The position numbers and the translations under genes are program-made. Under the pieces are notes generated by a model that was not told the DNA's origin, did no database searches, and saw only the letters and a program-made list of their open reading frames with translations. 62,639 nt of DNA from a virus (lineage: Duplodnaviria; Caudoviricetes), in the IMG/VR virus record IMGVR_UViG_3300006638_000002, positions 1 through 62,639 of that record; one strand, given 5' to 3'. Below, piece by piece: positions 1,749 through 55,290 of the stretch. Positions within the stretch are counted from its first letter, which is position 1; each line of letters starts with the position of its first letter.

Positions 1749-1903
1749 AGAAACTTTTTGTTACTCTCGGTTTATTGGCAGCCGTCTTGATCTGCGGTGG
1801 ATGGAATGTTCATGGCATACCGTCGCCATCGACTAGTTTCATGTTGGTAAACACCGGCTCATTTATGCTGGTGAATACCGGATCAAAATTGAAGGTGAAA
1901 TAA
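1745..1903 (+). CDS. 52-aa signal-peptide micro-protein with tandem SFMLVNTG repeat
   Basis: ATGA overlap upstream, TAATG overlap downstream; MKKLFVTLGLLAAVLICGG N-terminus. Confidence 0.65.
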   Translation: MKKLFVTLGLLAAVLICGGWNVHGIPSPSTSFMLVNTGSFMLVNTGSKLKVK

Positions 1904-3438
1904 TGCTCCGGTTCATGGTCGGATTGATCTTGCTTGGTCTTATATCGCAGGCCAATGCCGCAGACTCCACTATCGATGCTCTCGGTGCCGGTTCTGCGTT
2001 AACTGGCGCAGAGTCAGTTCCAATGTTTCAGTCCGCTAACCCTGCTGTCAAAACAACGACCAGAGCGATAGGAAATTTGGCCCCTGGAAACGGGACGGCT
2101 TACATCGACGCTACGCAGCAGTCCGGCGCGGATATGTGCGCCAAGATCGCGGCGGCACAAACCGCACTTATATCAGCGTCACCATTTGGGGGTGTTGTTG
2201 ATGCGCGTGGTTTTCTTGGCGTGCAGCCGTGTGCCGGTTCCATGTTTCTTGCTACCGGGAATGTTGCCGTAACAATTCTTCTTGGTGCCACTTCAATTCA
2301 AACGGCTGTACCTCAAAATCCTCCAACGCTGACTGCGCTGGTTGGCTCTATGCCATTCTCCATTAACGCTCCACTAATAGCGCAAGCCACTGGCACAGTC
2401 ATTCAGCCCGCAAATTCCAACTCTTTTGTAGTTACTAAAACGACCAGCGGATCGACCGCAAGCGGGGCCGTATTGCCGTTTACCGACACATCTGGAATTG
2501 TGGTCGGTGATTCCGTGACCGGAACGAATATAGTCGTACATACCACTGTTCAGTCCATTGTGACTAATACCAGCGTGACAGTGGGAGAGGCAATTTCCGG
2601 GACAGTGGGAAGTGGTGCAACGATCACTTTCACGCATCCAATCATGTCGATGGGCGCTGGTGCCGTTTCTACTGCCGTACAAATTTCCAACCTGAAAGTT
2701 TCGTGCCAGCAGCCTAACGCGAGTTATCTATCTGGCGGAATTGGCATTCAGAATGATTGGGCGCAGCAGCAGAGTTTTCTTTTCAACGTGGTTATCAGCG
2801 GATGCTTTACTAACTTCGATATAGAAACAACGAATGCTCAAAACGGCGGTCCTTACAACTATGTGACAATGGCGGCAGGTTATGCGTCCGTCAACGAAAC
2901 GTGCATGAAGATAGGAAATAATAATGGCAGCAACACAGTTCTCGAATCTGCGTTTCACGGCCTTTCCTGCGGCGGCGCAGGAGTAGGTTTTGAACCTACT
3001 GTCGGAATTTATCAGGATGCGTATTCATTGGGCATCTATGATTCCAATGTGGAAAATGTAGTTACAGGCATCGAGGTAGGACGATACAACTTCGTTCACG
3101 GTCTATTGCTATCGAATATAAATTGTGGTGGGCAGGCCCAAGCAATGACCACCTGTGTCGATATTTCTTCAAACAATTCCGTGGATGCCGCGACACTCAC
3201 GAACATTACCGGATACAGTGGGGACGGCGTTACTAACAGGCTTGTCGATCATATCAATTCAAGAACTATAACGACCCCGTGGGTCGCCTACTATATACTC
3301 GCGCACGACGGGTCGATCATAGCCGATGGTGCCACTAACCTTTTTACGACGCTTGGAACAACGGCGGGTGTTACTTGTGCGAGTGGCGTAACAGCCGCAA
3401 CTGTTACGGTATTGAAAGGCATTGTGACGCATTGCTAG
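1903..3438 (+). CDS. Exported tailspike-like (probable beta-helix) protein with Sec signal peptide
   Basis: MLRFMVGLILLGLISQANA|ADS; GADMCAKIAAAQ..GGVVDARG cap typical of beta-helix tailspikes; Asn/Gly-rich; 10 Cys. Confidence 0.75.
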   Translation: MLRFMVGLILLGLISQANAADSTIDALGAGSALTGAESVPMFQSANPAVKTTTRAIGNLAPGNGTAYIDATQQSGADMCAKIAAAQTALISASPFGGVVDARGFLGVQPCAGSMFLATGNVAVTILLGATSIQTAVPQNPPTLTALVGSMPFSINAPLIAQATGTVIQPANSNSFVVTKTTSGSTASGAVLPFTDTSGIVVGDSVTGTNIVVHTTVQSIVTNTSVTVGEAISGTVGSGATITFTHPIMSMGAGAVSTAVQISNLKVSCQQPNASYLSGGIGIQNDWAQQQSFLFNVVISGCFTNFDIETTNAQNGGPYNYVTMAAGYASVNETCMKIGNNNGSNTVLESAFHGLSCGGAGVGFEPTVGIYQDAYSLGIYDSNVENVVTGIEVGRYNFVHGLLLSNINCGGQAQAMTTCVDISSNNSVDAATLTNITGYSGDGVTNRLVDHINSRTITTPWVAYYILAHDGSIIADGATNLFTTLGTTAGVTCASGVTAATVTVLKGIVTHC

Positions 3439-3604
3439 GGGACTCGACGGTTCTGATGCGCATCTAGTCCGGTGCGTTGCACCGCTTCTATGCCGGCCCA
3501 TTCTACCCGGTCATGAAACGGATAGCCTTCGCACGCGTGCTATGGTAGCCACGTTCTAGCCGTGTTAGTTTGATTCCTGTTGCAAAAATAAGGAAATCCG
3601 CACC

Positions 3605-4150
3605 ATGGGCCATCTCCAATCGACAATGAAACGGATCGAGGATGAAGAGCTGCCTGCGAATGTTGTGGCTGTCGTGATCGAGAGTGACCCACTCGCCCAG
3701 CCCGTCGCGCCACAGTCCAAGACATTCGAGGTTCCTGGCATTGGCACCTCAGTTCAATTCCGCCTGCGTGGTGGAGAATGGCGAAATGGGCAGAATGCCT
3801 TTGCGGCGATAGTGACCAAATCCAATCCTGATGATGGCACTGTGAATCTGCTGGTGGTGTTCGGCGCCGATGATTTCATGGAGCAGCAGAGTGTCCCGCA
3901 ATTGGTCGGTGACGGCGATTGGGGCTGGTCAATGCTCGATAGCTCGGCTGGCGCGGGGATAGCTAAACTGCGGGCTGAGTTTAAGGCGTTCAAGGCCGAA
4001 CTTGCCGCTGTTATCCTTGGGGGATGGGAGATTCGAAAGGAATCGATTTACGACGTGCTGCAAGAACATGATAACCGGCTATCGCTACTTGCTAGCGGAA
4101 ATGCGCCTGATCCAGTATCGCCGCGGCGTCGTCGTAGGCAGAGGGACTAA
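3605..4150 (+). CDS. Hypothetical protein
   Basis: SD AAGGA upstream; sits directly before the portal. Confidence 0.75.
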   Translation: MGHLQSTMKRIEDEELPANVVAVVIESDPLAQPVAPQSKTFEVPGIGTSVQFRLRGGEWRNGQNAFAAIVTKSNPDDGTVNLLVVFGADDFMEQQSVPQLVGDGDWGWSMLDSSAGAGIAKLRAEFKAFKAELAAVILGGWEIRKESIYDVLQEHDNRLSLLASGNAPDPVSPRRRRRQRD

Positions 4151-4155
4151 CCGCC

Positions 4156-6510
4156 TTGGACCCTGGTGCTGTCCAATCAATCGATACGCCCCCCGACGAT
4201 GGCATGACGATCGACGGGAATGCTGGATTGCCGGATGACGCTCCAGCGGCAGCGGTGTTGTCGATTAGCTCGCTCCCAGTCGGCAAGCAATTCGACGTTC
4301 TAAAGCAATTGCACCTTTCCGACGCCGACCACACGAAAGAGTGGCGTGCGATGGCAGAGGAATGGTTTGCCTTCCGCGCTGGCGAACAATGGACCGCAGA
4401 GGATAGGGCGCTGCTCAATAGCCAGCAGCGGCCGCATATCGTTTTTAACCGCGTCCTAACCATCCTAAAGGCCGTGGCGGGTATGGAAATCAACGGTCGG
4501 CACGAGATCACGTTCATTCCCCGCGGCACGCAGGATACGGCGGTTAACGAGGTGCTTTCGGCGGCTTCGAAATGGATGTCTGACGAATGCGACGGCGAGG
4601 ACGAGGAAAGCTCCGCTTTCGATGACACCTGTACGTGTGGAATCGGTGTTTGCGAGTCAAGAATGTCCTACGAGGACGATCCCGCGGGCCTCTATGTCGA
4701 GGACTGCATCGATCCGCGTGAGTTTTACTGGGACCGGACCGCGACCAAGAAAAACTTAGCCAATGCACGCCGTCTTTCCCGTGTACGCCGGATGCCTTTG
4801 GGCGATGCTTTGGCGTTATTTCCCGGCAGGACGGTGGAGCAATTAGACGCTACTTGGGCAGATGCTGGCCCGATGGATTACCCAAAGCGGACCATTGAGG
4901 AAAAGCGCAAGCGTGACGCTGATAATTCCTCGATGCAGGAATACGATGATAACTGCGAAGTGACGCTAGTACAGATTCAGTGGTTTGAGCGTGAGCCATA
5001 TTGGATTGTGGCCGATACGCAGACCAATACGAAAGCCGAACTGAGCGATGCGGAATACAATCGGTTTGTCGGCCGCATGAAGGTGCTTGGCATGCCGGTT
5101 CATGCCGCAAAGCTTACCCGCAAGGTCTACAAGCAGGCGTGGATGGGCGGGGATTTGCTGCAGAAAGCAGGTCCCGCGCCGATCAAGGGCAAATTCTCGT
5201 GGGATGTGATTACCGGAGAATTCGACAAGTCGAAGAAGTCGTGGTTTGGGCTTGTGAAGGTCATGCGCGACCCGCAGATGTGGGCAAACAAGTGGCTTTC
5301 TCAGATCCTGCATATCCTCAATACCACGGCGAAGGGCGGCATTCTGGCTGAGACGTCGGCATTCGATGATCAGCGCGAGGCCGAGGAAGGCTATGCACGG
5401 CCTGATACGATCACATGGCTGGCTGATGGCTCGCTGTCGGGTGATAAGCCGAAGATCATGCCCAAGCCTGGTGCCGGCATGACCGAGGGCTATCTCGGGC
5501 TTATGACCTTTGCCATTTCGTCGATCAAGGACGTGACGGGTATCAACCTCGAGCTATTGGGCCAGCAGGACCAGAACCAGCCCGGCATTATCGAGGCGAT
5601 GCGCAAGCAGGCCGGTATGACGGTGCTGGCGACATTGTTTGATTCGCTGCGTCGGTTCCGCAAAAATGTTGGACGATCACGGCTCTATTTCATCCAGAAT
5701 TTCTTGTCGGATGGTCGCCTGATTCGCGTGGTGCAGCCTGATAACGTGCAGGCCGTGGCTCTGGCAAAGCAAAGCACCACCGGAAAATACAACGTGATCG
5801 TGGACGATACGCCTACGTCGCCAAACCAGAAGGAAGCCAATTGGGCGATTATCCAGCCGCTGCTAGGGATATTCAAAGATCAGCTTATGGCTAATCCGCA
5901 GGTGTTCGCCATGCTGCTTGAGTACTCGCCGCTGCCGAATCGCATTGTGGAGGCAATCAAAGGATTTATTGCCAAGCAGCAGAACGATCCGCAGGCGAAG
6001 CAGGATCAGGATATTGCGAAACATTTGGCGATTACTGCGCAGGTCGCCTCGATTTCCAAGGATCAGTCGATCGCTGAAATGAACAACAAAAAGGCCGGGG
6101 CGACTGAGGCGACGGCCATGTACGACATTGCGCTCGCTCGCAAGATGCTGGCCGAGAACGATACAAGCGGGCTTGATGCTCACCTCAAGGCAATGGAGGG
6201 GGCTGCCAAGGTGCAGACCGCAGCGGCGAACGCTGATAAGACCACGGCGCAGGCGGCTAGGGAGCGTGCCGGGGTGGTAAACGACCGCCTAGAAACGCAC
6301 GCCAAGGTCATAGGGGCCGTTTCTGATGCTCACCGAGCCACAACCGATGGCCATGCGGCCCATCTGGGGGGACTCATCGATCATATTGGCGCTATCGGGG
6401 GGCTACATCGTGATCTTGCTGCTGCGCACAAGGACCATGTGACTGCCGATCGCACGGAAGCAACGCCAATTCCTGAGCCACAGCCTGCGGCACCTGCTGG
6501 TGGTGCATGA
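4156..6510 (+). CDS. Portal protein (P22-like)
   Basis: GEQW..EDRALL..QQRPHIVFNR motif, GLVKVMRDPQ..ANK, long helical C-terminus; position after TerL. Confidence 0.9.
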   Translation: MDPGAVQSIDTPPDDGMTIDGNAGLPDDAPAAAVLSISSLPVGKQFDVLKQLHLSDADHTKEWRAMAEEWFAFRAGEQWTAEDRALLNSQQRPHIVFNRVLTILKAVAGMEINGRHEITFIPRGTQDTAVNEVLSAASKWMSDECDGEDEESSAFDDTCTCGIGVCESRMSYEDDPAGLYVEDCIDPREFYWDRTATKKNLANARRLSRVRRMPLGDALALFPGRTVEQLDATWADAGPMDYPKRTIEEKRKRDADNSSMQEYDDNCEVTLVQIQWFEREPYWIVADTQTNTKAELSDAEYNRFVGRMKVLGMPVHAAKLTRKVYKQAWMGGDLLQKAGPAPIKGKFSWDVITGEFDKSKKSWFGLVKVMRDPQMWANKWLSQILHILNTTAKGGILAETSAFDDQREAEEGYARPDTITWLADGSLSGDKPKIMPKPGAGMTEGYLGLMTFAISSIKDVTGINLELLGQQDQNQPGIIEAMRKQAGMTVLATLFDSLRRFRKNVGRSRLYFIQNFLSDGRLIRVVQPDNVQAVALAKQSTTGKYNVIVDDTPTSPNQKEANWAIIQPLLGIFKDQLMANPQVFAMLLEYSPLPNRIVEAIKGFIAKQQNDPQAKQDQDIAKHLAITAQVASISKDQSIAEMNNKKAGATEATAMYDIALARKMLAENDTSGLDAHLKAMEGAAKVQTAAANADKTTAQAARERAGVVNDRLETHAKVIGAVSDAHRATTDGHAAHLGGLIDHIGAIGGLHRDLAAAHKDHVTADRTEATPIPEPQPAAPAGGA

Positions 6511-36003: not shown

Positions 36004-36189
36004 TCACTGCCACTTATTACCAACGCGGCACACTAGCCCATTGCCGTAATCGACTAGCGTGTATTTTTTGCCTTCACGCCGAGCTAGTTCGGCTTGCATG
36101 ATGGCAACCTTGTCGCGTTCGGTCCTGCGGCGATCTTCGCCGGTAACAACGTCAAACAGTTTTCCGAGTAGCTGCGTGCCGTTGCTCAA
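36004..36189 (-). CDS. Array micro-ORF (MSNGTQLL...)
   Basis: TTG start after AGATAG-AGGA junction. Confidence 0.5.
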   Translation of the reverse strand: MSNGTQLLGKLFDVVTGEDRRRTERDKVAIMQAELARREGKKYTLVDYGNGLVCRVGNKWQ

Positions 36190-36200
36190 GAAAAAATCCT

Positions 36201-36356
36201 CTATCTCGCGGCCTTGACCGCGTTGTAATCGTTTTGCGCCTCGACCATCCGCGCGCAATGGGCGGATCGGTGGTCACAGCTTTTGCGACACTCCAAATGG
36301 GCACAGGGCGGCGTTAGCCGCTTGAACACTTCCCTATCTTCAAGTGGCGTCGCCAT
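36201..36356 (-). CDS. Array micro-ORF, Cys/His-rich (MATPLEDREV...)
   Basis: Follows ACGAAATAG-GAAC junction; ends GCG AGA TAG. Confidence 0.6.
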   Translation of the reverse strand: MATPLEDREVFKRLTPPCAHLECRKSCDHRSAHCARMVEAQNDYNAVKAAR

Positions 36357-36366
36357 CACCCGGTTC

Positions 36367-36474
36367 CTATTTCGTTTTAACAATCTGGTATGTCGCTGCG
36401 ACCGCGCAGCAAGCGAGAGCCAACATAGTGACTGATGCGCTTATGATAAATATGTTCATGGGTATGTCCGCCAT
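36367..36474 (-). CDS. Array micro-ORF, 35-aa single TM
   Basis: GGAGG SD in junction; ends ACG AAA TAG. Confidence 0.55.
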   Translation of the reverse strand: MADIPMNIFIISASVTMLALACCAVAATYQIVKTK

Positions 36475-36486
36475 TCCAAAATCCTC

Positions 36487-36708
36487 CTATTTTGATATCT
36501 GTACCGGACGAGTTTCCCAATCAACGCCCATTTCTTGTTGAAAACTAATTACGTTTTCCTCAGTCCACAATCTTGTGCGTCCGTCGCATGTGCGGACGCG
36601 CACCCATTTATGACTTGCACCAAAGCCGATCACCTCACCGCAACAAGTGTCAAGGTCAGGATTGTTTTTGGTGGCGTGATAGACGGGCTCTCCAATTACG
36701 ACTTTCAT
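36487..36708 (-). CDS. Array micro-ORF (MKVVIGEP...)
   Basis: ATGA coupling; ends TCA AAA TAG. Confidence 0.6.
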   Translation of the reverse strand: MKVVIGEPVYHATKNNPDLDTCCGEVIGFGASHKWVRVRTCDGRTRLWTEENVISFQQEMGVDWETRPVQISK

Positions 36709-36830
36709 TTCCTGGGAACCTTCCAAAACTCACCACATGAATAGCATCGCCAGCGATAATAGCGCGTGCCAGGGCTTTGCAAGCCCCGTTCCCTGTGAAA
36801 AATAAAACACCAAATTCTGCGAATCTTCAC
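36705..36830 (-). CDS. Array micro-ORF with C..H...CxxC zinc-finger-like pattern
   Basis: MKIRRIWCFIFH...RCYSCGEFW; GGAGG SD. Confidence 0.55.
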   Translation of the reverse strand: MKIRRIWCFIFHRERGLQSPGTRYYRWRCYSCGEFWKVPRK

Positions 36831-36852
36831 GATGCCCTCCTAATTTCACTCC

Positions 36853-36989
36853 AAGCACTTATCGGATGGTGGCAGACGCCTACGCTTCCTGCCGATCACC
36901 CCGAACCCGAAACCTTCATGCGGCGATCAACTCCGCATTCGTCGGGTTTAACGTCCCAGGGCGTCCCCCGGACCATCCGATAAGCGCTC
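36853..36989 (-). ncRNA. Structured non-coding RNA unit A (four-way junction)
   Basis: 18-bp closing helix GAGCGCUUAUCGGAUGGU/ACCAUCCGAUAAGUGCUU (mismatches are G.U only on minus strand) plus three internal hairpins. Confidence 0.65.
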
Positions 36990-36993
36990 CTGC

Positions 36994-37131
36994 TCATTTA
37001 AGACGTTTGAGGACAAACTGTGCTGCTGCATAACCACCTTGCGCGGCCATGACAACGAGAGCGACAACCGCGACAACGCCAAGGAGTAGCAGCGTGATTG
37101 CCCCGATCATTGCAAGTAGTGGACTAGCCAT
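36994..37131 (-). CDS. Array micro-ORF, 45-aa membrane peptide
   Basis: MASPLLAMIGAITLLLLGVVAVV...; ends AAA TGA. Confidence 0.55.
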   Translation of the reverse strand: MASPLLAMIGAITLLLLGVVAVVALVVMAAQGGYAAAQFVLKRLK

Positions 37132-37140
37132 CAAATTTTC

Positions 37141-37353
37141 CTATTGTGTCATCTTAATATCGGCCAAAGCCACCCTGGCGACCTGTGCTGCTTCCTGGCA
37201 TTTATCGCAGCAAGTGTTATCTGCGATGCTTTGCAGCGCCGTTCGCAACCGCTCGATTGTGGTCATGGCATCCTCTATGTTGCTGGCAACGCCCCTGGAA
37301 AAGCTTGCCTCGCATCTAGCTGCGTCAAACCGCAATCGCTCAACTATGTCCAC
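37141..37353 (-). CDS. Array micro-ORF, DIVERLR...IERLR family
   Basis: GGAG SD in junction; ends ACA CAA TAG. Confidence 0.65.
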   Translation of the reverse strand: MDIVERLRFDAARCEASFSRGVASNIEDAMTTIERLRTALQSIADNTCCDKCQEAAQVARVALADIKMTQ

Positions 37354-37361
37354 GGTCACTC

Positions 37362-37505
37362 CTATTTTGAGAGTGACGGAAGCGTGATAATAAGTTTTCT
37401 GCGCCCGGCCTTCTTAAATCTAACTGCGCCGCCGCGATCACGTGCCGCCGCAGCCTTGCGTTTCATATTCTTTTTTGCCTGGGCAATTTTTTTCTGCGAA
37501 GCCAT
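37362..37505 (-). CDS. Array micro-ORF, 47-aa basic peptide
   Basis: MASQKKIAQAKK...; ends TCA AAA TAG. Confidence 0.55.
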   Translation of the reverse strand: MASQKKIAQAKKNMKRKAAAARDRGGAVRFKKAGRRKLIITLPSLSK

Positions 37506-37525
37506 AACCGTTCCTAGTTGTTAAA

Positions 37526-37645
37526 TGGGATGCTCGGCAACACTTCCGATGTGCTCCGAGAGCGCGAGCGGCCTTTGGCATCGGAGTCCTCCGCTCCTTA
37601 GACCAATCCGTTACCGGCGGTCGTCATCCCAACTGTGAAACTCCT
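37526..37645 (-). ncRNA. Structured non-coding RNA unit B (cloverleaf)
   Basis: UGGGAUG/CAUCCCA closing stem; GACC..CCG-GUAA-CGG..GGUC; GAGCGG/CCGCUC; CUCGG/CCGAG hairpins. Confidence 0.55.
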
Positions 37646-37651
37646 CTATAT

Positions 37652-37834
37652 TCACCAAGGGCTGCCACACGCCGCGCCAACCGGCGCAGCGCACAGCCAT
37701 GAAAGATATTCCTCGCACTGTTCGACGGTGCGCCGAGATCCAACCCACTTGCCATTCACCCATAGATCGAACAGCAAGGCGAAGCCGCGATGATCCTTTA
37801 CCGCTCGCGCTTCAATGTCTGCCGGATCGTTCAC
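37652..37834 (-). CDS. Array micro-ORF (MNDPADIE...)
   Basis: AAGGAG SD; ends TGA-ATATAGAGG. Confidence 0.6.
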   Translation of the reverse strand: MNDPADIEARAVKDHRGFALLFDLWVNGKWVGSRRTVEQCEEYLSWLCAAPVGAACGSPW

Positions 37835-37844
37835 GGTCGCTCCT

Positions 37845-38117
37845 TTATCTCGTCTGTTCTCGCGGATGAACTTGCCCGTGATTTGCACCGACCTCGCTCA
37901 CATCAAACGCATCTTTCAACCGTGCGAGTGTTTCGCCATCGGCCCATGACACCGCAACGTATGGCCGGTACGGAGCCGCGCCACCTTCACCAATCGTCCC
38001 CTGACAACTCGTATGAGTGCGAACGCCGGGGATTGTATTGAGATAGCGCACCGTGTCGGCAATGCCTTCGTCCACATCGACTATGACTTGCATTGCGATC
38101 TGCTTGTGAACAACCAC
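37845..38117 (-). CDS. Array ORF (VDEGIA..V..LN..PGVRT..SCQG family)
   Basis: AAGGAG SD; ends ACG AGA TAA. Confidence 0.7.
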   Translation of the reverse strand: MVVHKQIAMQVIVDVDEGIADTVRYLNTIPGVRTHTSCQGTIGEGGAAPYRPYVAVSWADGETLARLKDAFDVSEVGANHGQVHPREQTR

Positions 38118-38129
38118 CGCCGGCACTCC

Positions 38130-38234
38130 TTATTTTCGCGCCCAATCTTGAATGCTGCACTCAACAAGCGTGTAAAGCGCCGCACCGCCAAATCCAAAAG
38201 CGACTATTCCGGCTATAACTAATAATGGCGTCAC
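38130..38234 (-). CDS. Array micro-ORF, 34-aa single TM
   Basis: AGGAG SD; ends CGA AAA TAA. Confidence 0.55.
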   Translation of the reverse strand: MTPLLVIAGIVAFGFGGAALYTLVECSIQDWARK

Positions 38235-38242
38235 GATGGCTC

Positions 38243-38428
38243 CTAATTTGACTGCTTGGCAACGCGCTCAATCTCTTTGAACATCTGGATAACTCGGCCT
38301 TCGTGATCTTGAAGCGCACATGCGGCGATGTACAAAAGCGAGTGTGTTGGCTCATCTTTGACAGCGGCAACCCGCGCCCAAAACTTCTTGCTCACTTTGC
38401 CGGAATACTGAGGAGTTGGACCTGTCAT
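38243..38428 (-). CDS. Array micro-ORF (MTGPTPQYSG...)
   Basis: AAGGA SD; ends TCA AAT TAG. Confidence 0.65.
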   Translation of the reverse strand: MTGPTPQYSGKVSKKFWARVAAVKDEPTHSLLYIAACALQDHEGRVIQMFKEIERVAKQSN

Positions 38429-38439
38429 ATTTTATATCC

Positions 38440-38598
38440 TTTAGACCATTAAGTGAGCCGCCTGCTAACCCGCTCTTGCGGGAAGACAAAAGTGGGGTTC
38501 GGAACCATCCCTGGCTAGAGCTTTGTTGGGCGCTCTTGGGAGAATGGTCGTGACGCTCTATGTCCCCGGTCGTCATCCTTTACCCGTGGAAACTCTCC
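38440..38598 (-). ncRNA. Possible structured non-coding unit C, 5' end homologous to unit B
   Basis: Shares GAGUUUC..GGAUGACGACCG and UGGUCUAA with unit B; UAGAGC/GCUCUA, GGGACA/UGUCUU, CCCGC/GCGGG stems. Confidence 0.4.
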
Positions 38599-38605
38599 TG
38601 CATAT

Positions 38606-38878
38606 TCAGACGGATTTGCGCATAGATTTGATTTCGTCGTTCACCAGATCGACTCCGCGTAACGCGCCTTCGACGTAGGCTTGCAAAACAATAGCGTTGA
38701 CTTGTGCTTCCATTCTGGCCTTGAATTTTTCTCTCACATCGGCCGGCGCGCTACGGTTCAAATTCATAGGGCTGATAACGTTCTTAATCATGGACGTTAG
38801 ATCGACATCTACGGCCCACTTATCCGCAAGCCCGTCGAGGACATCTAGGCCGATCTCCGCTTTTCGCTTCGCGTTCAT
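38606..38878 (-). CDS. Array ORF (MNAKRKAE...)
   Basis: Ends GTC TGA-ATATG. Confidence 0.7.
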   Translation of the reverse strand: MNAKRKAEIGLDVLDGLADKWAVDVDLTSMIKNVISPMNLNRSAPADVREKFKARMEAQVNAIVLQAYVEGALRGVDLVNDEIKSMRKSV

Positions 38879-38888
38879 GCCGCCGCCC

Positions 38889-39044
38889 CTATTTCGACTC
38901 GGCTATATCAATGTCAGCAGAAAGGGCCGCGAGCACAATCACCAAGGCCTCGCTCACCTTGGCAAGAGACGGTCCGCGATTTTCCAACCCGAGAACTTTT
39001 TCTAGGCGCCTAAGCGCACGTCGAAATTCTTCTTCTTTGCTCAT
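38889..39044 (-). CDS. Array micro-ORF (MSKEEEFRR...)
   Basis: AGGAG SD; ends TCG AAA TAG. Confidence 0.6.
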   Translation of the reverse strand: MSKEEEFRRALRRLEKVLGLENRGPSLAKVSEALVIVLAALSADIDIAESK

Positions 39045-39052
39045 ATCCGCTC

Positions 39053-39259
39053 CTATTTCGCTAGTCGCTCTAAACGATCAACGCGCTCACACCGCATTCT
39101 CGTTATTGCGGCATCAAGAGTCATCCGCTCTATCGTGCGCCCCATCTCGACCCAATCTCCAAGCATCTCCGCCGTCAGCCTAGTATCGGCGGGATCATCA
39201 ACGACGATTGCTCGGACGGTGCCGTCTTTTATTCCGACATAAGCTGAAAGTTCATCCAC
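39053..39259 (-). CDS. Array micro-ORF (MDELSAYVG...)
   Basis: AGGAG SD; ends GCG AAA TAG. Confidence 0.7.
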   Translation of the reverse strand: MDELSAYVGIKDGTVRAIVVDDPADTRLTAEMLGDWVEMGRTIERMTLDAAITRMRCERVDRLERLAK

Positions 39260-39268
39260 AATCGGCTC

Positions 39269-39460
39269 CTATTTCTCGTCAGTGATTATTGGAACGGCGC
39301 CCTTCAAGATTGCCGCAGCAATGTCGTTAGCAAGACCGTCAAGCGGCACTTCATCGGCAAAGCATGGGCTGTGATCCATGAGGATGCCATAAGCCATGTT
39401 CAGCGCAATCAGCTTTGGATTCGTGCGCCGCTGTTCCCTGATGTATTCCACGCTATCCAC
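39269..39460 (-). CDS. Array micro-ORF (MDSVEYIR...)
   Basis: AGGAG SD; ends GAG AAA TAG. Confidence 0.7.
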   Translation of the reverse strand: MDSVEYIREQRRTNPKLIALNMAYGILMDHSPCFADEVPLDGLANDIAAAILKGAVPIITDEK

Positions 39461-39472
39461 GGTCGCTCCTGC

Positions 39473-40123: not shown

Positions 40124-40134
40124 ACGAACGACCC

Positions 40135-40200
40135 CTTTTCTGTCAGTAAGTGATATGGCATTATTGACAGAAAAGCAAGACCGTGCCTATATTCTCCACA
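40135..40200. promoter_or_regulatory. 41-bp inverted repeat (candidate recombinase site) overlapping a sigma70 promoter
   Basis: CTTTTCTGTCAGTAA-N11-TTATTGACAGAAAAG (14/15 match); TTGACA 40164-69, N18, TATATT 40188-93; ATG at 40200 suggests leaderless mRNA. Confidence 0.75.
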
Positions 40201-40508
40201 TGCCGAAACGCATCCAACGAAAGCGCACGAAGGGCTGGCGGATGCCGCCGAATACGGTCTGCGTCACGCGGCCGGGCCGGTGGGGCAATCCTTACCGCGC
40301 CAGCTTGTTCCGTGATTACAGCCGCGAGCAGCAAGTGGCCGATTACAAGCGATGGATTGATGGCGACGTTGGCGGTCGAGTATGGGCCGGGCCGCCGCCG
40401 ACCGAGGCGGAAATTCGCAAAGAACTACGAGGCAAAAATCTCGCTTGTTATTGTCCGATTGGCGAGCCGTGCCACGCTGATTTGTTGCTCAAGATTGCTA
40501 ACCCATAA
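40200..40508 (+). CDS. DUF4326-family protein
   Basis: PKRIQRKRTKGWRMP..V.RP..WGNP..LRGKNLACYC....CHAD.L. Confidence 0.85.
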   Translation: MPKRIQRKRTKGWRMPPNTVCVTRPGRWGNPYRASLFRDYSREQQVADYKRWIDGDVGGRVWAGPPPTEAEIRKELRGKNLACYCPIGEPCHADLLLKIANP

Positions 40509-40530
40509 ATCTGGATTCGGAGCCCCGATC

Positions 40531-40737
40531 ATGCCCGCAGCATTTAAGATGGAAGGCGTTTCGATTGGCGGCAAGATTTACGTCCTTGAGGCAGATTGCC
40601 GCCGAACAGTGAACGCGGCGATGGCCGCCGCCAAAAATGCCGAACGTGAGCGCTGCGCTCATATCGCCTTGGCGATTGATAGCAAGCGCGGCAATGAGAA
40701 AGAAATAGCTCGCGCAATCCGCGCTCAGACAGTTTGA
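40531..40737 (+). CDS. Array micro-ORF (AERERCA...IA.AIR family)
   Basis: Follows GGAGCCCCG; ends TGA-ATATAGAGGCCCC. Confidence 0.65.
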   Translation: MPAAFKMEGVSIGGKIYVLEADCRRTVNAAMAAAKNAERERCAHIALAIDSKRGNEKEIARAIRAQTV

Positions 40738-40754
40738 ATATAGAGGCCCCGGCT

Positions 40755-40937
40755 GTGAAACAGAAACTAGACATCACGAGTTGGCTCCGTAAGGAAGCGG
40801 AGTTAATTCATGGGTTTGATCGGGCGGCAGAAGCCGCTGACGAGATCGAGCGGATGCGGAAAGCACAGCCCTGCGTCTGCCCGAAATGCGGCGGTCGCGG
40901 CACATATCAAAACGGCAGCTTCACGTTGAAGGAATAG
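40755..40937 (+). CDS. Array micro-ORF, EAADEIER + CPKCGG
   Basis: GTG after junction; ends GAA TAG GCCC. Confidence 0.65.
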   Translation: MKQKLDITSWLRKEAELIHGFDRAAEAADEIERMRKAQPCVCPKCGGRGTYQNGSFTLKE

Positions 40938-40943
40938 GCCCGC

Positions 40944-41114
40944 ATGGAAAACGCCAAAGGCCAACCAGACGCCGCCAGGCTTATTTTCGCCACAGCCCAA
41001 AAAATGGTTGACGTGCTAGACGCATCTGAGTTGCCAGATGGGCCGTTGAAGGCGGCTGCAATAAAGGTGTTGGCAATCACCTACAACATGGAAGCTCGCG
41101 CTCAGAAGGAATAG
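40944..41114 (+). CDS. Array micro-ORF (MENAKGQP..., 56 aa)
   Basis: Bounded by exact 15-bp repeat GAAGGAATAGGCCCG. Confidence 0.6.
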   Translation: MENAKGQPDAARLIFATAQKMVDVLDASELPDGPLKAAAIKVLAITYNMEARAQKE

Positions 41115-41122
41115 GCCCGAAA

Positions 41123-41278
41123 ATGAGCAAATCAGAAATAGAGATGCTTCGCAGTCTTGGTTATCCTTGGGCCATTAGAGCCGCCGACGAGATTGAGCGG
41201 TTGCAGAAACAAGTGAACGATCTTGAATTTACTCTCGACTGCCGAACCGAGGCGTTAGAAGAAGCTTCCGAACAATAA
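41123..41278 (+). CDS. Array micro-ORF, AADEIERL family (51 aa)
   Basis: Ends CAA TAA AGGCCCG. Confidence 0.6.
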   Translation: MSKSEIEMLRSLGYPWAIRAADEIERLQKQVNDLEFTLDCRTEALEEASEQ

Positions 41279-41287
41279 AGGCCCGAT

Positions 41288-41482
41288 ATGCTACTGCCTA
41301 GGCCACGCTTTGACCCACTGGATCGGTACGCAACCGAATTGGCCGACTTTGTGGTTCAAAAAGAATGGCATCCATCGAATGCCTCCAGGTCCATGCGCTG
41401 TCAAATTCTTGCCGCCGAACTTCGTAGATTCGTTGGCGAGTGGCTGGCGGCAAATCCGCCGCCCGTTAGAAACGGGGATTAG
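41288..41482 (+). CDS. Array micro-ORF (MLLPRPRF...)
   Basis: Ends GAT TAG GCCC. Confidence 0.6.
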   Translation: MLLPRPRFDPLDRYATELADFVVQKEWHPSNASRSMRCQILAAELRRFVGEWLAANPPPVRNGD

Positions 41483-41490
41483 GCCCTACC

Positions 41491-41667
41491 ATGCCAACGA
41501 TAATCACCAGGACTAGCTCCGCTCCGACCGAGCAGTTAGCGGAAGTCGAAAGGGCGATCCGCGAATATCATGAGGCGCTGGATCGCCGGGAGCACGGTGG
41601 CGTGGCGGCCGACAAAGCGATAAAGCATATCGAGGCCATTCTTTGTCTCGAATGGCGAAACCGATAA
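41491..41667 (+). CDS. Array micro-ORF (..IREYH.ALDRREHGGVA.., 58 aa)
   Basis: Open frame between junctions. Confidence 0.6.
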   Translation: MPTIITRTSSAPTEQLAEVERAIREYHEALDRREHGGVAADKAIKHIEAILCLEWRNR

Positions 41668-41671
41668 TCCC

Positions 41672-41989
41672 ATGCTAAATGACATAGTAGAACGCCTGCG
41701 CGAAAATCGCCCTAAAATGCCGACGCGAGATCGCTATGAAGCGGCCGACTTGATCGAGCAGAAGATGTGGCAACCGATTGAAACAGCGCCGAAGGACGGA
41801 AGCCTAATCGTGCTGGCCGATTATTCCGGCTTTCGTGAGCGCGGCAGCGACGGCATGTGGATAGCGACGGGATGCTGGAACGCCGCCGAAAACGAACTTG
41901 AGAACGGCAGGTGGTGGGACCGAACAGAGTACCTTTATACGCCGACACACTGGATGCCGTTGCCCTCACCTCCAACTCTAACAAAATAG
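41672..41989 (+). CDS. DUF551-like protein with DIVERLR/EAADLIE N-terminus
   Basis: WQPIETAPKDG...PTHWMPLP; ends ACA AAA TAG CCC. Confidence 0.8.
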   Translation: MLNDIVERLRENRPKMPTRDRYEAADLIEQKMWQPIETAPKDGSLIVLADYSGFRERGSDGMWIATGCWNAAENELENGRWWDRTEYLYTPTHWMPLPSPPTLTK

Positions 41990-41998
41990 CCCGGAACC

Positions 41999-42184
41999 GT
42001 GACTAAGATCGAACAGATGCTCGAAATGGTCCTTACCAATCAGGTCACCATTATGCGTTGGATGCTCACAGCGAGCGACGAGCCGGGATCAGGAAGAAAA
42101 TCCGATCATCGCAAAACGATGGGCACCCGCGCCGAGGTCACCGAGAACTGGCTAAAGTATCACCCGCCCAAGCAAATAAAATAG
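41999..42184 (+). CDS. Array micro-ORF (MTKIEQML...)
   Basis: Ends ATA AAA TAG GCCG. Confidence 0.6.
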   Translation: MTKIEQMLEMVLTNQVTIMRWMLTASDEPGSGRKSDHRKTMGTRAEVTENWLKYHPPKQIK

Positions 42185-42191
42185 GCCGCCG

Positions 42192-42326
42192 ATGGAACAG
42201 TGCGAATGTGGCCGTCCGAAAGGGCAATGCGTTCAGGGCGACATGAAACGCTGCCCTGCCCTAGATGATGACGAACTCGATAACGAGCCACCGCTCTACA
42301 CCGAAACAGACGACGACAATTATTGA
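42192..42326 (+). CDS. Array micro-ORF, Cys-rich then acidic (44 aa)
   Basis: MEQCECGRPKGQC...; ends TGA-ATATGGAGCCCCG. Confidence 0.55.
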   Translation: MEQCECGRPKGQCVQGDMKRCPALDDDELDNEPPLYTETDDDNY

Positions 42327-42339
42327 ATATGGAGCCCCG

Positions 42340-42630
42340 ATGGAAAAGCCACTCGAAGAACTAGAGCCACATGCTTATGTCCCAAGCGCGATGCACATGG
42401 GCGATTGTCAGGTCTGTGGGCACCTTCAGGGATCGCCTATTCATTCGCCATTTACCAGCATGGGAACGCCCATCAGTGACGCCGAAATCAGGCACACGAT
42501 CTGTTGGGATGATGGAGAAGATCGGGACGCGGCGCTTGCTGGCGGCAAATACGTGACCTGCGCCGGAGAGTGGCGGCAGCGACCGGATACCTGCTGGCAG
42601 TTCTTCAAAGACCCGACCGTTGAAATCTGA
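42340..42630 (+). CDS. Array ORF with H..CxxC..H motif
   Basis: GGAG SD; ends TGA-ATGTAGAGGCC. Confidence 0.65.
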   Translation: MEKPLEELEPHAYVPSAMHMGDCQVCGHLQGSPIHSPFTSMGTPISDAEIRHTICWDDGEDRDAALAGGKYVTCAGEWRQRPDTCWQFFKDPTVEI

Positions 42631-42647
42631 ATGTAGAGGCCGCCGCC

Positions 42648-42830
42648 ATGAAAATCGACATGCAAGAGATTGAGCGAATCGGCGGCAGGGCAAAAAACCC
42701 TGACATTGATGCCGCGCTTCGCATTCTCGAAATGAATGGTTTGGTCGTTGAGGAACGCCCTCGCGTTGATCGTGGCGACGACCACAGAACGGTCAATACG
42801 CCAACCAGTTTTTTTAACTCTAGCCGTTGA
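42648..42830 (+). CDS. Array micro-ORF (MKIDMQEI...)
   Basis: Ends TGA-ATGTAGAGGCCCC. Confidence 0.6.
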   Translation: MKIDMQEIERIGGRAKNPDIDAALRILEMNGLVVEERPRVDRGDDHRTVNTPTSFFNSSR

Positions 42831-42844
42831 ATGTAGAGGCCCCG

Positions 42845-43012
42845 ATGCCCTACCTAGAAACAATAGAGTTGGCTGCTAGGCGTGCTGCTGAAAGGCTGCA
42901 AAAGTCGGAGGATCACTCCATGTATTGCGCGGGGTCTGCGCTTGAAACCTTGGCCGAAGAAATCCTTTCAATCATCAACGAGCGCAAGCGAGACGCTGCG
43001 CAGACAAAATAG
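42845..43012 (+). CDS. Array micro-ORF (MPYLETIE...)
   Basis: Ends ACA AAA TAG GCCCC. Confidence 0.6.
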   Translation: MPYLETIELAARRAAERLQKSEDHSMYCAGSALETLAEEILSIINERKRDAAQTK

Positions 43013-43021
43013 GCCCCGACC

Positions 43022-43219
43022 ATGACCGACGAGCAGAAAGTCGCCTATCTTAACGCGCAAGTCGTCTGCGCTCAGATTGAGGTCGCCGGGATGCAGGCTG
43101 AAAACCAGCACCGCATGAATACAGGAAATTCAATCGCCTATGGCGAGGAAGCCTTCGCCGCCGTCGCCAACAAATATGGCATCCACCACAACGCCGTCCT
43201 TGGCTTGTTCCAAGGTTGA
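43022..43219 (+). CDS. Array micro-ORF (..GMQAENQHR...G.SIAYGEEAF family)
   Basis: Ends TGA-ATGTAGGGCC. Confidence 0.7.
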   Translation: MTDEQKVAYLNAQVVCAQIEVAGMQAENQHRMNTGNSIAYGEEAFAAVANKYGIHHNAVLGLFQG

Positions 43220-43326
43220 ATGTAGGGCCAGATCGTGAAGGCGCGTTGGCGCGTCGCTGGTACAAGGCCAAGGCCGACCTACTCATCACGATAGGTCTTG
43301 GCGCTCTAACAAATAAGGCCGACTGC

Positions 43327-43416
43327 TCAGCAGCAGTTTCCATATCCAGAATAATGAACGCCGAGCAGCACGATCGCCACGATAAAGGCGACCGCGATTG
43401 CCACTCGTGTCGCCAT
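43327..43416 (-). CDS. 29-aa membrane peptide ending SGYGNCC
   Basis: TGATG coupling; similar to 34930..35034. Confidence 0.55.
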   Translation of the reverse strand: MATRVAIAVAFIVAIVLLGVHYSGYGNCC

Positions 43417-43568
43417 CAGTGAAAAAACCCTGCGCGCATAACGCCACCGAATAGCTCGGCAGCGATCCAACACGCTATACCGATCCAAGCAAAGCGTCGC
43501 GTCTGCCATGCCTCGATGGTAACAAACACAAAAGCGAAAGCCAGTAGGACTAGACCTAAGTTCTGCAT
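43416..43568 (-). CDS. 50-aa two-TM membrane protein
   Basis: MQNLGLVLLAFAFVF...; GGAGG SD. Confidence 0.6.
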   Translation of the reverse strand: MQNLGLVLLAFAFVFVTIEAWQTRRFAWIGIACWIAAELFGGVMRAGFFH

Positions 43569-43684
43569 CAGAACCTCCCAAAAATAACGAGGACGATAAC
43601 GACGAGCAGCACTAAGCCGATGCCGCCGCCAGCGTGATACGGGCCGCCGAAACAGCCCTCGCCAGACACCACGCAACCAGTCAA
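43568..43684 (-). pseudogene. 5'-truncated small membrane protein (DUF3309-like C-half)
   Basis: GGGIGLVLLVVIVLVIFGRF*; frame is closed upstream at 43696 and has no SD; family call from memory. Confidence 0.35.
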
Positions 43685-43709
43685 TAGAGCCCACTAAGGA
43701 GATACCAAT

Positions 43710-43818
43710 GAGCGCGCGTCCCGGACGGGTGAAAACCAAGATGCGGAACCTGAAACAGCGGGCTTCGGCTCGCCCCGCTCTTGGCCGTAGTCGCAGGCGT
43801 CGTAACCCTGCCGCGCTC
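43710..43818 (+). ncRNA. tRNA-like structured RNA unit (overlaps a 44-aa ORF, 43708..43842)
   Basis: 7-bp GAGCGCG/CGCGCUC stem stacked on GCAGG/CCUGC arm; CCAAGA/UCUUGG stem; cUUCGg hairpin. Confidence 0.55.
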
Positions 43819-43838
43819 GCCTTACTTGGAGATATAAA

Positions 43839-44210
43839 ATGACGACAGCACGAACCGATGGGGTCCGCGAGCTTACGAAAAAGCCGGAAAGCGAAATGAC
43901 GGAGAACGAACATCGCGCCGTCGTTGCCGCGCATTTTTTCATGGCTGAATTGATGGTCAATGAACGCGGGGCAATCGTGCCAGCCGCCGACGACAAAGAC
44001 GGCGTTCGTGCTGTCGATTATCTCGCTTCAATAATGTGCGATTTGCTCGATGACAAATCCACTTCCGCAACTGTAACAAAACTGCGTGATGTGCTGCGCC
44101 AAATTTCTGAAATGAAACGAGAAGATTTGTATTTGGCGGATAGCGAACTGCCAATCGACAATGCTGCCGCGTGGACTGCTAAAAATGCTCTTGCTGAAAC
44201 CAGTCAATAG
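43839..44210 (+). CDS. Array ORF (MTTARTDG...)
   Basis: GGAG SD; stop lies in the 19-bp repeat. Confidence 0.7.
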   Translation: MTTARTDGVRELTKKPESEMTENEHRAVVAAHFFMAELMVNERGAIVPAADDKDGVRAVDYLASIMCDLLDDKSTSATVTKLRDVLRQISEMKREDLYLADSELPIDNAAAWTAKNALAETSQ

Positions 44211-44225
44211 AGCCCAGTCATCGGC

Positions 44226-55084: not shown

Positions 55085-55290
55085 GCCTCAGAAATAGGCC
55101 GTGGTGGATTTTTTGGCTTCTTGTGGCCCCGTGGTACCAGTTTATCCGCCGACGCGCCCTGTGCCTGCCCTAGGGCTTTTACGGCGGCAGCCTTTTTGGC
55201 CTCTCTAGGCTCTTTCCGGTTATTCTGCTGGAATCGCTGTTCGCGCTGAACGCGAAGGGCAGCTTCACGGGGTCCGATCGGTTTTGCCAT
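55081..55290 (-). CDS. Small basic protein
   Basis: IGPREAALR..RE motif; TGATG coupling. Confidence 0.6.
   Translation of the reverse strand: MAKPIGPREAALRVQREQRFQQNNRKEPREAKKAAAVKALGQAQGASADKLVPRGHKKPKNPPRPISEA

Follow-up and report, generated by a model that had tools for sequence, protein, structure and literature searches.

The closest described counterparts of the element discussed here come from two groups of phages. In Cluster K mycobacteriophages, the start-associated sequence (SAS) is described by Pope et al. (2011; PMC3203893) as a 13-bp asymmetric repeat that lies 3-9 bp before start codons and is confined to the right arm of the genome, and its function was still given as unknown in accounts of 2024-2025 (PMC11373665, PMC12699233). 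For T4-type phages, Arbiol et al. (2010; PMC2839356) report that recombination between repeated regulatory cassettes, the PeSLs, which consist of an early promoter and a terminator stem-loop, shuffles ORFan genes by insertion, deletion and replacement. Here, we analysed the gene junctions in the rightward early operon, or right arm, of a soil phage whose whole genome of 62,639 bp constitutes the virus record IMGVR_UViG_3300006638_000002 (the window). A short motif recurs at these junctions, with a purine core resembling a Shine-Dalgarno (SD) sequence and a C-rich tail. In our judgement it is likely, though far from certain, that it is a standardized adaptor of stop codon, SD core and C-rich spacer which is also the seam of cassette exchange.

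Judged by these analogies, the closest behaviour would be that of the Cluster K SAS, and the evolutionary behaviour would be nearest to that of the T4-type PeSLs. As in the published description of the SAS, the motif is a short asymmetric repeat placed just before start codons, in one orientation and in the non-structural arm only; it contains an SD core, often the upstream stop and a non-pairing CCC tail, in the layout TAG-GAG-CCC, and it precedes genes of different families, mostly with ATG starts. By the criterion of Pope et al. (reused in PMC12699233), the 13-bp SAS consensus has no match in the window at ≤2 mismatches, and at 3 mismatches the 16 matches are at chance level (17.0 ± 4.3 in shuffles), two of them at junctions (39263-39275, minus strand; 40513-40525, plus strand). 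Most SAS genes are separated from the preceding gene by >50 bp and a subset is described with upstream inverted repeats of the extended SAS (ESAS) type, whereas the gaps here are 4-22 nt long and lack ESAS-type repeats; moreover, the phage, judged by its likely host, is not an actinophage, and identical blocks are common to otherwise unrelated phages. With the PeSLs, as they are described, the locus shares short conserved regulatory repeats between small ORFans and the coincidence of these repeats with replacement boundaries. Unlike a PeSL, however, the repeat is a translation signal of 12-19 nt, and the junctions showed neither a plus-strand promoter match nor a consistent hairpin. Ordinary SD-coupled junctions likewise have stop, SD and start within about 20 nt, and the SD energy lies in the normal range of this phage. 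They differ in that 17-19-nt blocks are identical here across unrelated genomes, with a fixed, non-complementary C-rich spacer; small-gene arrays of phages typically have overlapping stop and start codons, and the early genes of Rhizobium phage RHph_Y1_10, for instance, mostly overlap by 4 nt according to its annotation.

The structural genes of the phage occupy roughly 1-35 kb, and two early operons diverge at ~40.15 kb. The rightward one (40200-43300, plus strand) holds about 14 small, tightly packed ORFs (open reading frames), namely a DUF4326 gene and then 13 ORFs that encode 44-105 aa; the chain ends in a doubtful ORF of only 19 codons at 43235. From stop to start, its 14 junctions measure, in order, 22, 17, 6, 8, 9, 8, 4, 9, 7, 13, 17, 14, 9 and 15 nt (Table 1). 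An initial annotation had quoted 15 strings from this region. All 15 lie exactly where it placed them; three that it gave twice occur only at the two places named for each, and the others are unique in the window. Its statement that start codons follow within about 4-17 nt of the stop holds for 13 junctions and fails for the first. Four of its sites are not junctions of the kind it supposed, since 43311 belongs to a remnant with no start codon, 43682 and 44205 are the two copies of a 19-nt repeat, and 43217 precedes only the 19-codon ORF. The first junction and the motif-poor one at 41665 (TAATCCCATG) were absent from its list. Unguided repeat finding recovered two families, the GAAGGAATAGGCCCG family (perfect over 15 nt, two copies) and a long form, TTGAAT(A/G)T(A/G)GAGGCCCCG, with four copies; a fifth long-form copy (43216) was recognized by inspection only. 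In four of these five copies the TGA stop is followed two codons on by an in-frame TAG, and the fifth (42324) has TGG.

Table 1. Features of the early region, in window coordinates.
Feature	Position	Strand	Details
Left early arm	36189..39472	-	junctions AAATAGGAG(C): stop TAG fused to SD, without CCCG tail
Small serine recombinase, invertase/resolvase type, 216 aa	39473..40123	-	phrog_125 DNA invertase, E 2.8e-55; first gene of leftward operon, divergent from right arm
Inverted repeat of 15 nt, 93% complementary, 11-nt spacer	40135..40175		over divergent promoters, overlapping both -35 regions; unique in genome
Sigma-70-type promoter, rightward operon	40164..40193	+	TTGACA, 18 nt, TATATT; 11/12 hexamer matches
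First right-arm gene, DUF4326 protein, 102 aa	40200..40508	+	PF14216, E 4.8e-20
Right-arm ORF starts	40531, 40755, 40944, 41123, 41288, 41491, 41672, 41999, 42192, 42340, 42648, 42845, 43022	+	curated from sequence and ORF list
Junction 1	40512..40529	+	TGGATTCGGAGCCCCGAT (GGAGCCCCG), then ATG 40531
Junction 2, long form	40734..40751	+	TTGAATATAGAGGCCCCG, then GTG 40755; 18/18 identical to junction in unrelated phage G003
Junction 3	40926..40942	+	TTGAAGGAATAGGCCCG, then ATG 40944; 17-mer identical in L469, 13 nt in G003
Junction 4	41105..41119	+	GAAGGAATAGGCCCG, then ATG 41123; perfect 15-nt repeat of junction 3
Junction 5	41274..41285	+	AATAAAGGCCCG, then ATG 41288
Junction 6	41478..41486	+	ATTAGGCCC, then ATG 41491
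Junction 7, degenerate	41665..41671	+	TAATCCC, then ATG 41672; only CCC kept; downstream gene DUF551-like
Junction 8	41981..41993	+	ACAAAATAGCCCG, then GTG 41999
Junction 9	42178..42191	+	AAAATAGGCCGCCG, then ATG 42192
Junction 10, long form	42323..42339	+	TTGAATATGGAGCCCCG, then ATG 42340
Junction 11, long form	42627..42647	+	CTGAATGTAGAGGCCGCCGCC, then ATG 42648
Junction 12, long form	42827..42844	+	TTGAATGTAGAGGCCCCG, then ATG 42845
Junction 13	43004..43018	+	ACAAAATAGGCCCCG, then ATG 43022
Junction 14, long form, operon end	43216..43229	+	TTGAATGTAGGGCC; only 19-codon GTG ORF (43235-43294) after it
Junction remnant	43304..43321	+	CTCTAACAAATAAGGCCG, in convergent gap, without start codon after it
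Two perfect 19-nt direct repeats	43675-43693, 44198-44216	+	AACCAGTCAATAGAGCCCA; bracket two-gene insert (43708-43842, 43839-44210)

Does the junction motif bind ribosomes? The initial annotation had concluded that it does not, since GCCCC has no complementarity to the anti-SD sequence. That argument considered GCCCC only. The bases directly 5' of it (AGG, GAGG or GGAG, with AAGGA further upstream) form an SD core, which in several junctions is preceded by another AAGGA or GGAG. For the 22 nt before the start codon, the predicted energy of the duplex with the 16S 3' tail has a median of -5.65 kcal/mol at the 14 junctions, compared with -4.55 kcal/mol at 40 confidently called other genes, and the arm median is unchanged when the real 16S tail CACCUCCUUU from locus L468 is used. 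SD pairing is expected to end about 4-9 nt before the start codon; here its end lies 4-7 nt from the start codon in 10 of the 14 junctions and 2-7 nt in 11, while the pairing is weak or misplaced at the starts 41491, 41672 and 43235. The late genes of the phage carry plain AAGGAGG or GGAGG, and the host therefore uses the canonical SD. Thus, by its predicted pairing, the right-arm junction motif would be a ribosome-binding site; the unmistakable stop-in-SD design of the left-arm junction AAATAGGAG, taken together with the right-arm SD energies, means that the contrary claim fails. The uniform junction of the left arm can be written (A)AATAGGAG(C), and the last sense codon before it is very often AAA. 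TAG is the stop codon of 8 of the 11 left-arm genes, 6 of the 14 right-arm genes and 7 of 40 genes elsewhere.

SD pairing alone is nevertheless insufficient to explain the conservation, and on this point the initial annotation was right. Nothing in the last 10 nt of 16S rRNA is complementary to the CCC(C)G tail, the tail is specific to the right arm, and phages with hardly a gene in common carry identical blocks of 17-19 nt. Pairing of the tail with 16S rRNA outside the anti-SD was considered and discarded as chance: AGGCCCG has one perfect complement in a Paracoccaceae 16S rRNA (position 1322), but so do 8.5% of all 7-mers, and no such complement exists for the four-C variant. When the 14 junctions were folded together with 60-nt flanks, no shared hairpin was predicted, the mean unpaired probability from -18 to -1 being 0.51 at junctions and 0.45 in controls, and a search of Rfam returned two matches only, both far below gathering scores.

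The motif is far from chance. AGGCCC occurs 27 times in the genome on both strands, and seven of these copies fall on the plus strand of the 2.8-kb arm, which makes up 2.3% of the search space. Scored leave-one-out with a 12-nt weight matrix, 9 of 13 junctions reach ≥8 bits. First-order Markov simulations give 55 ± 6 matches per genome at this threshold (both strands, ~125 kb), and the real genome has 64, with 12 on the plus strand of the arm and none on its minus strand; among the 52 matches outside the arm, only the one at 55093 was found by inspection to lie at a stop codon. Of the 14 right-arm genes, 13 have GGCC or NGCCC at ≤14 nt from the start, compared with none of 11 left-arm genes and 2 of 39 other genes. 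The motif is, as the initial annotation's recombination proposal presupposed, not common at gene junctions elsewhere in the genome. In an alignment of 28 junctions from three phages by their start codons, C is found at -3 in 19 junctions, at -2 in 22 and at -1 in 17.

Is the motif restricted to this phage? A megablast of the right arm against 50,697 phage records gave one 36-nt match and no relative. A search with the small serine recombinase encoded beside the arm led to two contigs, L198 (26.9 kb; record G001, on which L307 also lies), with a recombinase of 67% identity, and L308 (59 kb), with one of 57%. Scanning for pairs of motif copies about one gene apart gave two more: G003 (loci L470 and L471), a complete phage of 55.8 kb whose 48% identical recombinase is divergent from and adjoins its arm, and L469, a 6.3-kb fragment with motif-bearing junctions. 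The motif is present at 9 of 11 junctions in L198, 2 of 3 in L308, 6 of 8 in G003 and 3 of 4 in L469, in forms such as AAATAGGCCCGATG, GTAAA(C/G)GCCCG, GAGCGCCCATG, GGAATAGGCCCATG and TTGAATATAGAGGCCCCG. Other routes yielded nothing further. Exact matches to a 14-mer of the long form were found in at least 117 stretches of viral contigs, and each of the 80 examined had a single match, as by chance; the best 80 loci among 174 relatives of the DUF4326 protein had no array of the junction motif, and the best 80 among 404 relatives of the DUF551-like protein had no motif. In bacterial genomes, the recombinase search gave a best identity of 54%, with no motif-bearing prophage and no host.

The genes that follow these conserved junctions are unrelated between the phages. 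Among 38 arm proteins from four of the five arms (those of L469 being left out), one cross-phage homologous pair, the DUF551-like one, was found at E ≤ 1e-3, and the ORFs of L469 had no tblastn match in the window at E ≤ 1e-4. Genome-wide, G003 and the window have about four proteins in common, namely the recombinase (48%) and about three others. In spite of this, the exact blocks of ≥15 nt common to the arms (18, 18, 17, 16 and 15 nt) all lie at junctions or at the junction remnant, and common 11-14-mers are about as frequent as in the control with the opposite strand. L469 uses the identical 17-mer in a different reading frame, in which its TGA terminates the ORF upstream. L198 has a motif-like CATAGAGATCGCCG, TAG included, ahead of the first gene of its operon, a place with no preceding ORF to be terminated. 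Between phages, the identity extends into the variable spacer and the start codon (GAATAGGCCCGAAAATGA). These three observations show the junction block to be a unit at the nucleotide level rather than a by-product of coding; and since same-genome copies differ in the spacer and start, where copies from different phages agree, the identity points to copying by descent rather than to convergence. Since G003 shares so little with the window beyond the recombinase, about three proteins and the junction blocks, the region of recombinase, promoter and arm behaves like a mobile piece of a mosaic, passed from one phage backbone to another unrelated one.

The clearest case of gene turnover is found in the window and G003, both of which have a long-form block followed ~190 nt later by a GTTGAAGGAATAG block. 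The ORFs enclosed by the two blocks, of 60 aa and 63 aa, do not align even at E ≤ 100, and their DNA is unalignable. Within the window, the 15-nt repeat of junctions 3 and 4 brackets exactly one gene (40944-41114) and the 19-nt repeat brackets two; L198 has blocks of 19-26 nt in two or three copies each, which take in the final codons of the unrelated genes preceding them. As unrelated cassettes sit between identical junctions, the junctions would be the seams of gene exchange, and to this extent the recombination proposed in the initial annotation is borne out. The end of the operon may preserve further traces of such exchange. Junction 14 is probably vestigial; the remnant after it shows 83% similarity to junction 8 taken together with the codons before it and has an exact 16-mer in common with a live junction of G003, and the long-form junction 14 and this decayed junction-8-like block (43220-43330) are probably the remains of deleted cassettes. 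The 19-nt repeats at 43675 and 44198 can be read as junction-like sequence that served as an insertion seam, and the left copy, at 43675, looks like the scar of an insertion at a junction. The two-gene insert (43675-44216 with its repeats) sits inside a stretch of minus-strand genes, and no ORF lies upstream of its left repeat copy. Between the end of the arm and the 19-nt repeat, the segment 43327-43684 has two small ORFs on the minus strand, of 84 and 38 aa. We also observed that, in the two public sequencing runs that contain the phage, X1 and X2, one contig each matches the window only from 40833 on; the sequence before this point is different and contains a junction-like GGAATAGG followed by ATG. 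These contigs look like a relative in the same samples in which part of the gene 40755-40937 is differently joined. Run X3 contains only short identical fragments of the window, and none of the runs listed for this stretch is recorded as RNA.

How could one short block serve both translation and exchange? Position, orientation, SD complementarity, restriction to the arm, conservation before unrelated genes and unrelated cassettes between identical junctions are directly visible. On the messenger, the motif would be the ribosome-binding site of the next gene. It would supply three things: the stop of the upstream ORF, as a TAG or TAA embedded in the motif or as the TGA of the long form; an SD-like core of purines (AGG, GAGG or GGAG), frequently preceded at a few bases' distance by another AAGGA or GGAG; and a C-rich spacer, CCC(C)G, which is unable to form a start or stop codon and is followed 0-6 nt on by ATG or GTG. 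As stop and start are only 4-22 nt apart, we infer that translation is coupled, the next gene probably being reached by termination and re-initiation. On the DNA, the same block of 12-19 nt, directly repeated and common to several phages, would be the seam at which ORFan cassettes are swapped by short-homology recombination; the mechanism of recombination and any specific role of the CCCG tail are what we infer beyond these observations. Genes for Erf, a YqaJ exonuclease and a NinB/Orf-like protein are present in the phage and could serve such exchange, and Erf-type recombinases and Orf are reported to promote mosaic formation on diverged sequence (PMC3945230).

Several points weigh against this dual role. 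The SD cores are short (3-5 bp), and in some relatives (L198, L308) the AGG stands only 3-4 nt from the start codon, which is closer than usual. The weight matrix and the regular expressions were designed after the sites had been seen, so the comparison of k-mers shared between arms is the unbiased test. In contigs assembled from public runs, which drop rare variants, we found no joints, insertions, deletions or cassette gain or loss at junctions. Furthermore, cytidines between SD and start are reported to reduce translation in E. coli (PMC7264876), and a C-rich tail is therefore not what simple optimisation of a ribosome-binding site would be expected to give. C-rich leaders have, on the other hand, been described as selected in vitro as efficient ribosome-binding sites, with examples noted in phages of other hosts (PMC3310771). 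As these two reports point in opposite directions, the effect of the tail on translation could go either way.

Could the arm instead be an integron-like cassette array, its junctions being DNA sites of the neighbouring serine recombinase? Integron cassettes carry promoterless ORFs, and their attC sites are structured imperfect inverted repeats of tens of bases, recognized by the tyrosine integrase IntI. A divergent recombinase, promoterless small ORFs split by a repeated sequence and a cassette content that varies between elements are features that the arm has in common with such an array. In this scheme, which we regard as quite improbable, the promoter dyad (40135-40175) would be the primary site, the junctions would be cassette sites and ribosome-binding sites at once, and the whole would be a gene-capture system based on a serine recombinase. 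Perfect direct repeats bracketing cassettes and the occurrence of unrelated cassettes between identical junctions are consistent with it, as is a recombinase homologue (48-67% identical) that lies divergent beside the motif-bearing arm in all four contigs reaching that far and is the only protein seen linked to all of them. G003 was found through the motif alone, but the linkages in L198 and L308 reflect ascertainment, as it was the recombinase that led to these two contigs, and the linkage is also explained if an early-region module was inherited from a common ancestor. The recombinase is of the serine type and is not an IntI. Resolvase and invertase sites use paired half-sites, for which gaps of 4-22 nt are too short, and the junctions are asymmetric: the repeat search found no inverted repeat at any of them, and hence no inverted half-sites of the res or hix type. 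Some thirteen direct-repeat sites within 3 kb would, moreover, invite deletion, and the SD that every junction has at working distance would be superfluous in a pure DNA site. The sole dyad lies in the promoter region of the recombinase gene and has no match to the junction weight matrix; half of it is conserved in L198 and L308. A resolvase-type protein is expected to bind and autoregulate at its own promoter region, and from its position the dyad is the better candidate for a recombinase binding site or operator. A resemblance between the junction block TTGAAGGAATAG and a dyad half-site (9/12 by eye) was dismissed as chance, since other junction forms and L198 do not match. The junctions are probably not the site of the serine recombinase, and the suggestion in the initial annotation of a protein-binding site finds no counterpart in dyad symmetry there.

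The remaining explanations concern regulation or mere descent. That the extended motif, with its CCC(C)G tail and ATAG prefix, is the mRNA target of a trans-acting factor controlling the operon, be it a translational repressor or activator of phage or host origin or a sequence-specific RNase, strikes us as unlikely, although it would account for a tail that is found in 13 of 14 right-arm genes and in none of the 11 of the left arm, which the same ribosomes translate, and for a motif that is strand-specific, start-proximal and conserved in other phages whatever the downstream gene. A factor of this kind has been proposed for the mycobacteriophage SAS, whose described layout of TAG, GAG and CCC is similar (PMC3203893, PMC11373665). 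However, no candidate was found, the only protein seen in all motif-bearing contigs being a DNA recombinase; the identity between phages covers spacer and upstream codons, which points to descent and not to a short recognition core; and the predictions gave no conserved RNA structure. The stoperators of Cluster A mycobacteriophages are also described as numerous asymmetric sites that lie between genes and are oriented with transcription (PMC9283540), and a repressor bound to the junctions could block elongation through the arm in lysogeny. Stoperator sites are spread over the genome, and their sequence also serves as the operator at the early promoter. We hold this reading of the junctions to be highly improbable, as no copy of the motif is present at the promoter or operator of the arm (no weight-matrix match in 40125-40199), the sites occur in one arm only, they keep a fixed distance to the start codon and contain an SD, and no repressor was identified. 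Finally, the likeness of the junctions might be a functionless leftover from tandem duplication of one ancestral gene with its junction. Two weak paralogous pairs in the arm (40755/41123, E 2e-4; 41288/41672, E 3e-5) would agree with such a history, which we nevertheless find scarcely credible: the other arm proteins are mutually unrelated, the junctions are 78-100% identical where the paralogues are 33-44% identical at the protein level, and the comparison of phages contradicts it, with the same junctions standing beside different genes in four other contigs. The combination of ribosome-binding site and exchange seam is accordingly the explanation that we favour.

Some further features of the phage frame this locus. 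Only two promoter-like sites were found on the plus strand of the arm, at 40164 and, within a gene, at 41679. As the -10 hexamer of the former ends 6 nt before the first ATG (40200), the DUF4326 gene is probably expressed from a leaderless mRNA; the counterpart promoter of L198 has a short leader with a junction-like motif. Pfam matches identify a P22-like portal and a major capsid protein of the Phage_capsid_3 family. The nearest cultured isolates by portal (~40% identity) infect Microcystis, Paracoccus and Rhizobium, which suggests that the phage is not an actinophage. An ORF of 511 aa (1903-3438) had no match in phage records or Pfam, and no tRNA genes were found in the window.

In summary, the junctions of the right arm appear to form a second family of start-associated sequences, independent of the mycobacteriophage one, in phages with a portal like that of phages infecting Gram-negative hosts. 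That the layout of TAG, SD core and C-run recurs speaks for some general mechanism, acting either at the ribosome or at the junction. With gaps of 4-22 nt and no ESAS, the junctions would also be a simpler test system than the SAS, whose function has been open since 2011. In an unrelated phage contig, L138 (about 3170-5300, plus strand), we observed an extended ribosome-binding site of its own, CCGGAGGCCAAGCCATG, repeated before at least four genes, and in L427 a similar repeated GGAGGCCAGCCATG; standardized start-associated blocks may thus be commoner in phages than the literature suggests. The window would, furthermore, offer an unusually clean natural case of the old 'linker' idea, in that identical adaptors of 13-19 nt bracket unrelated ORFans, so that one and the same sequence may both ensure the expression of an insert and provide the homology for inserting it.

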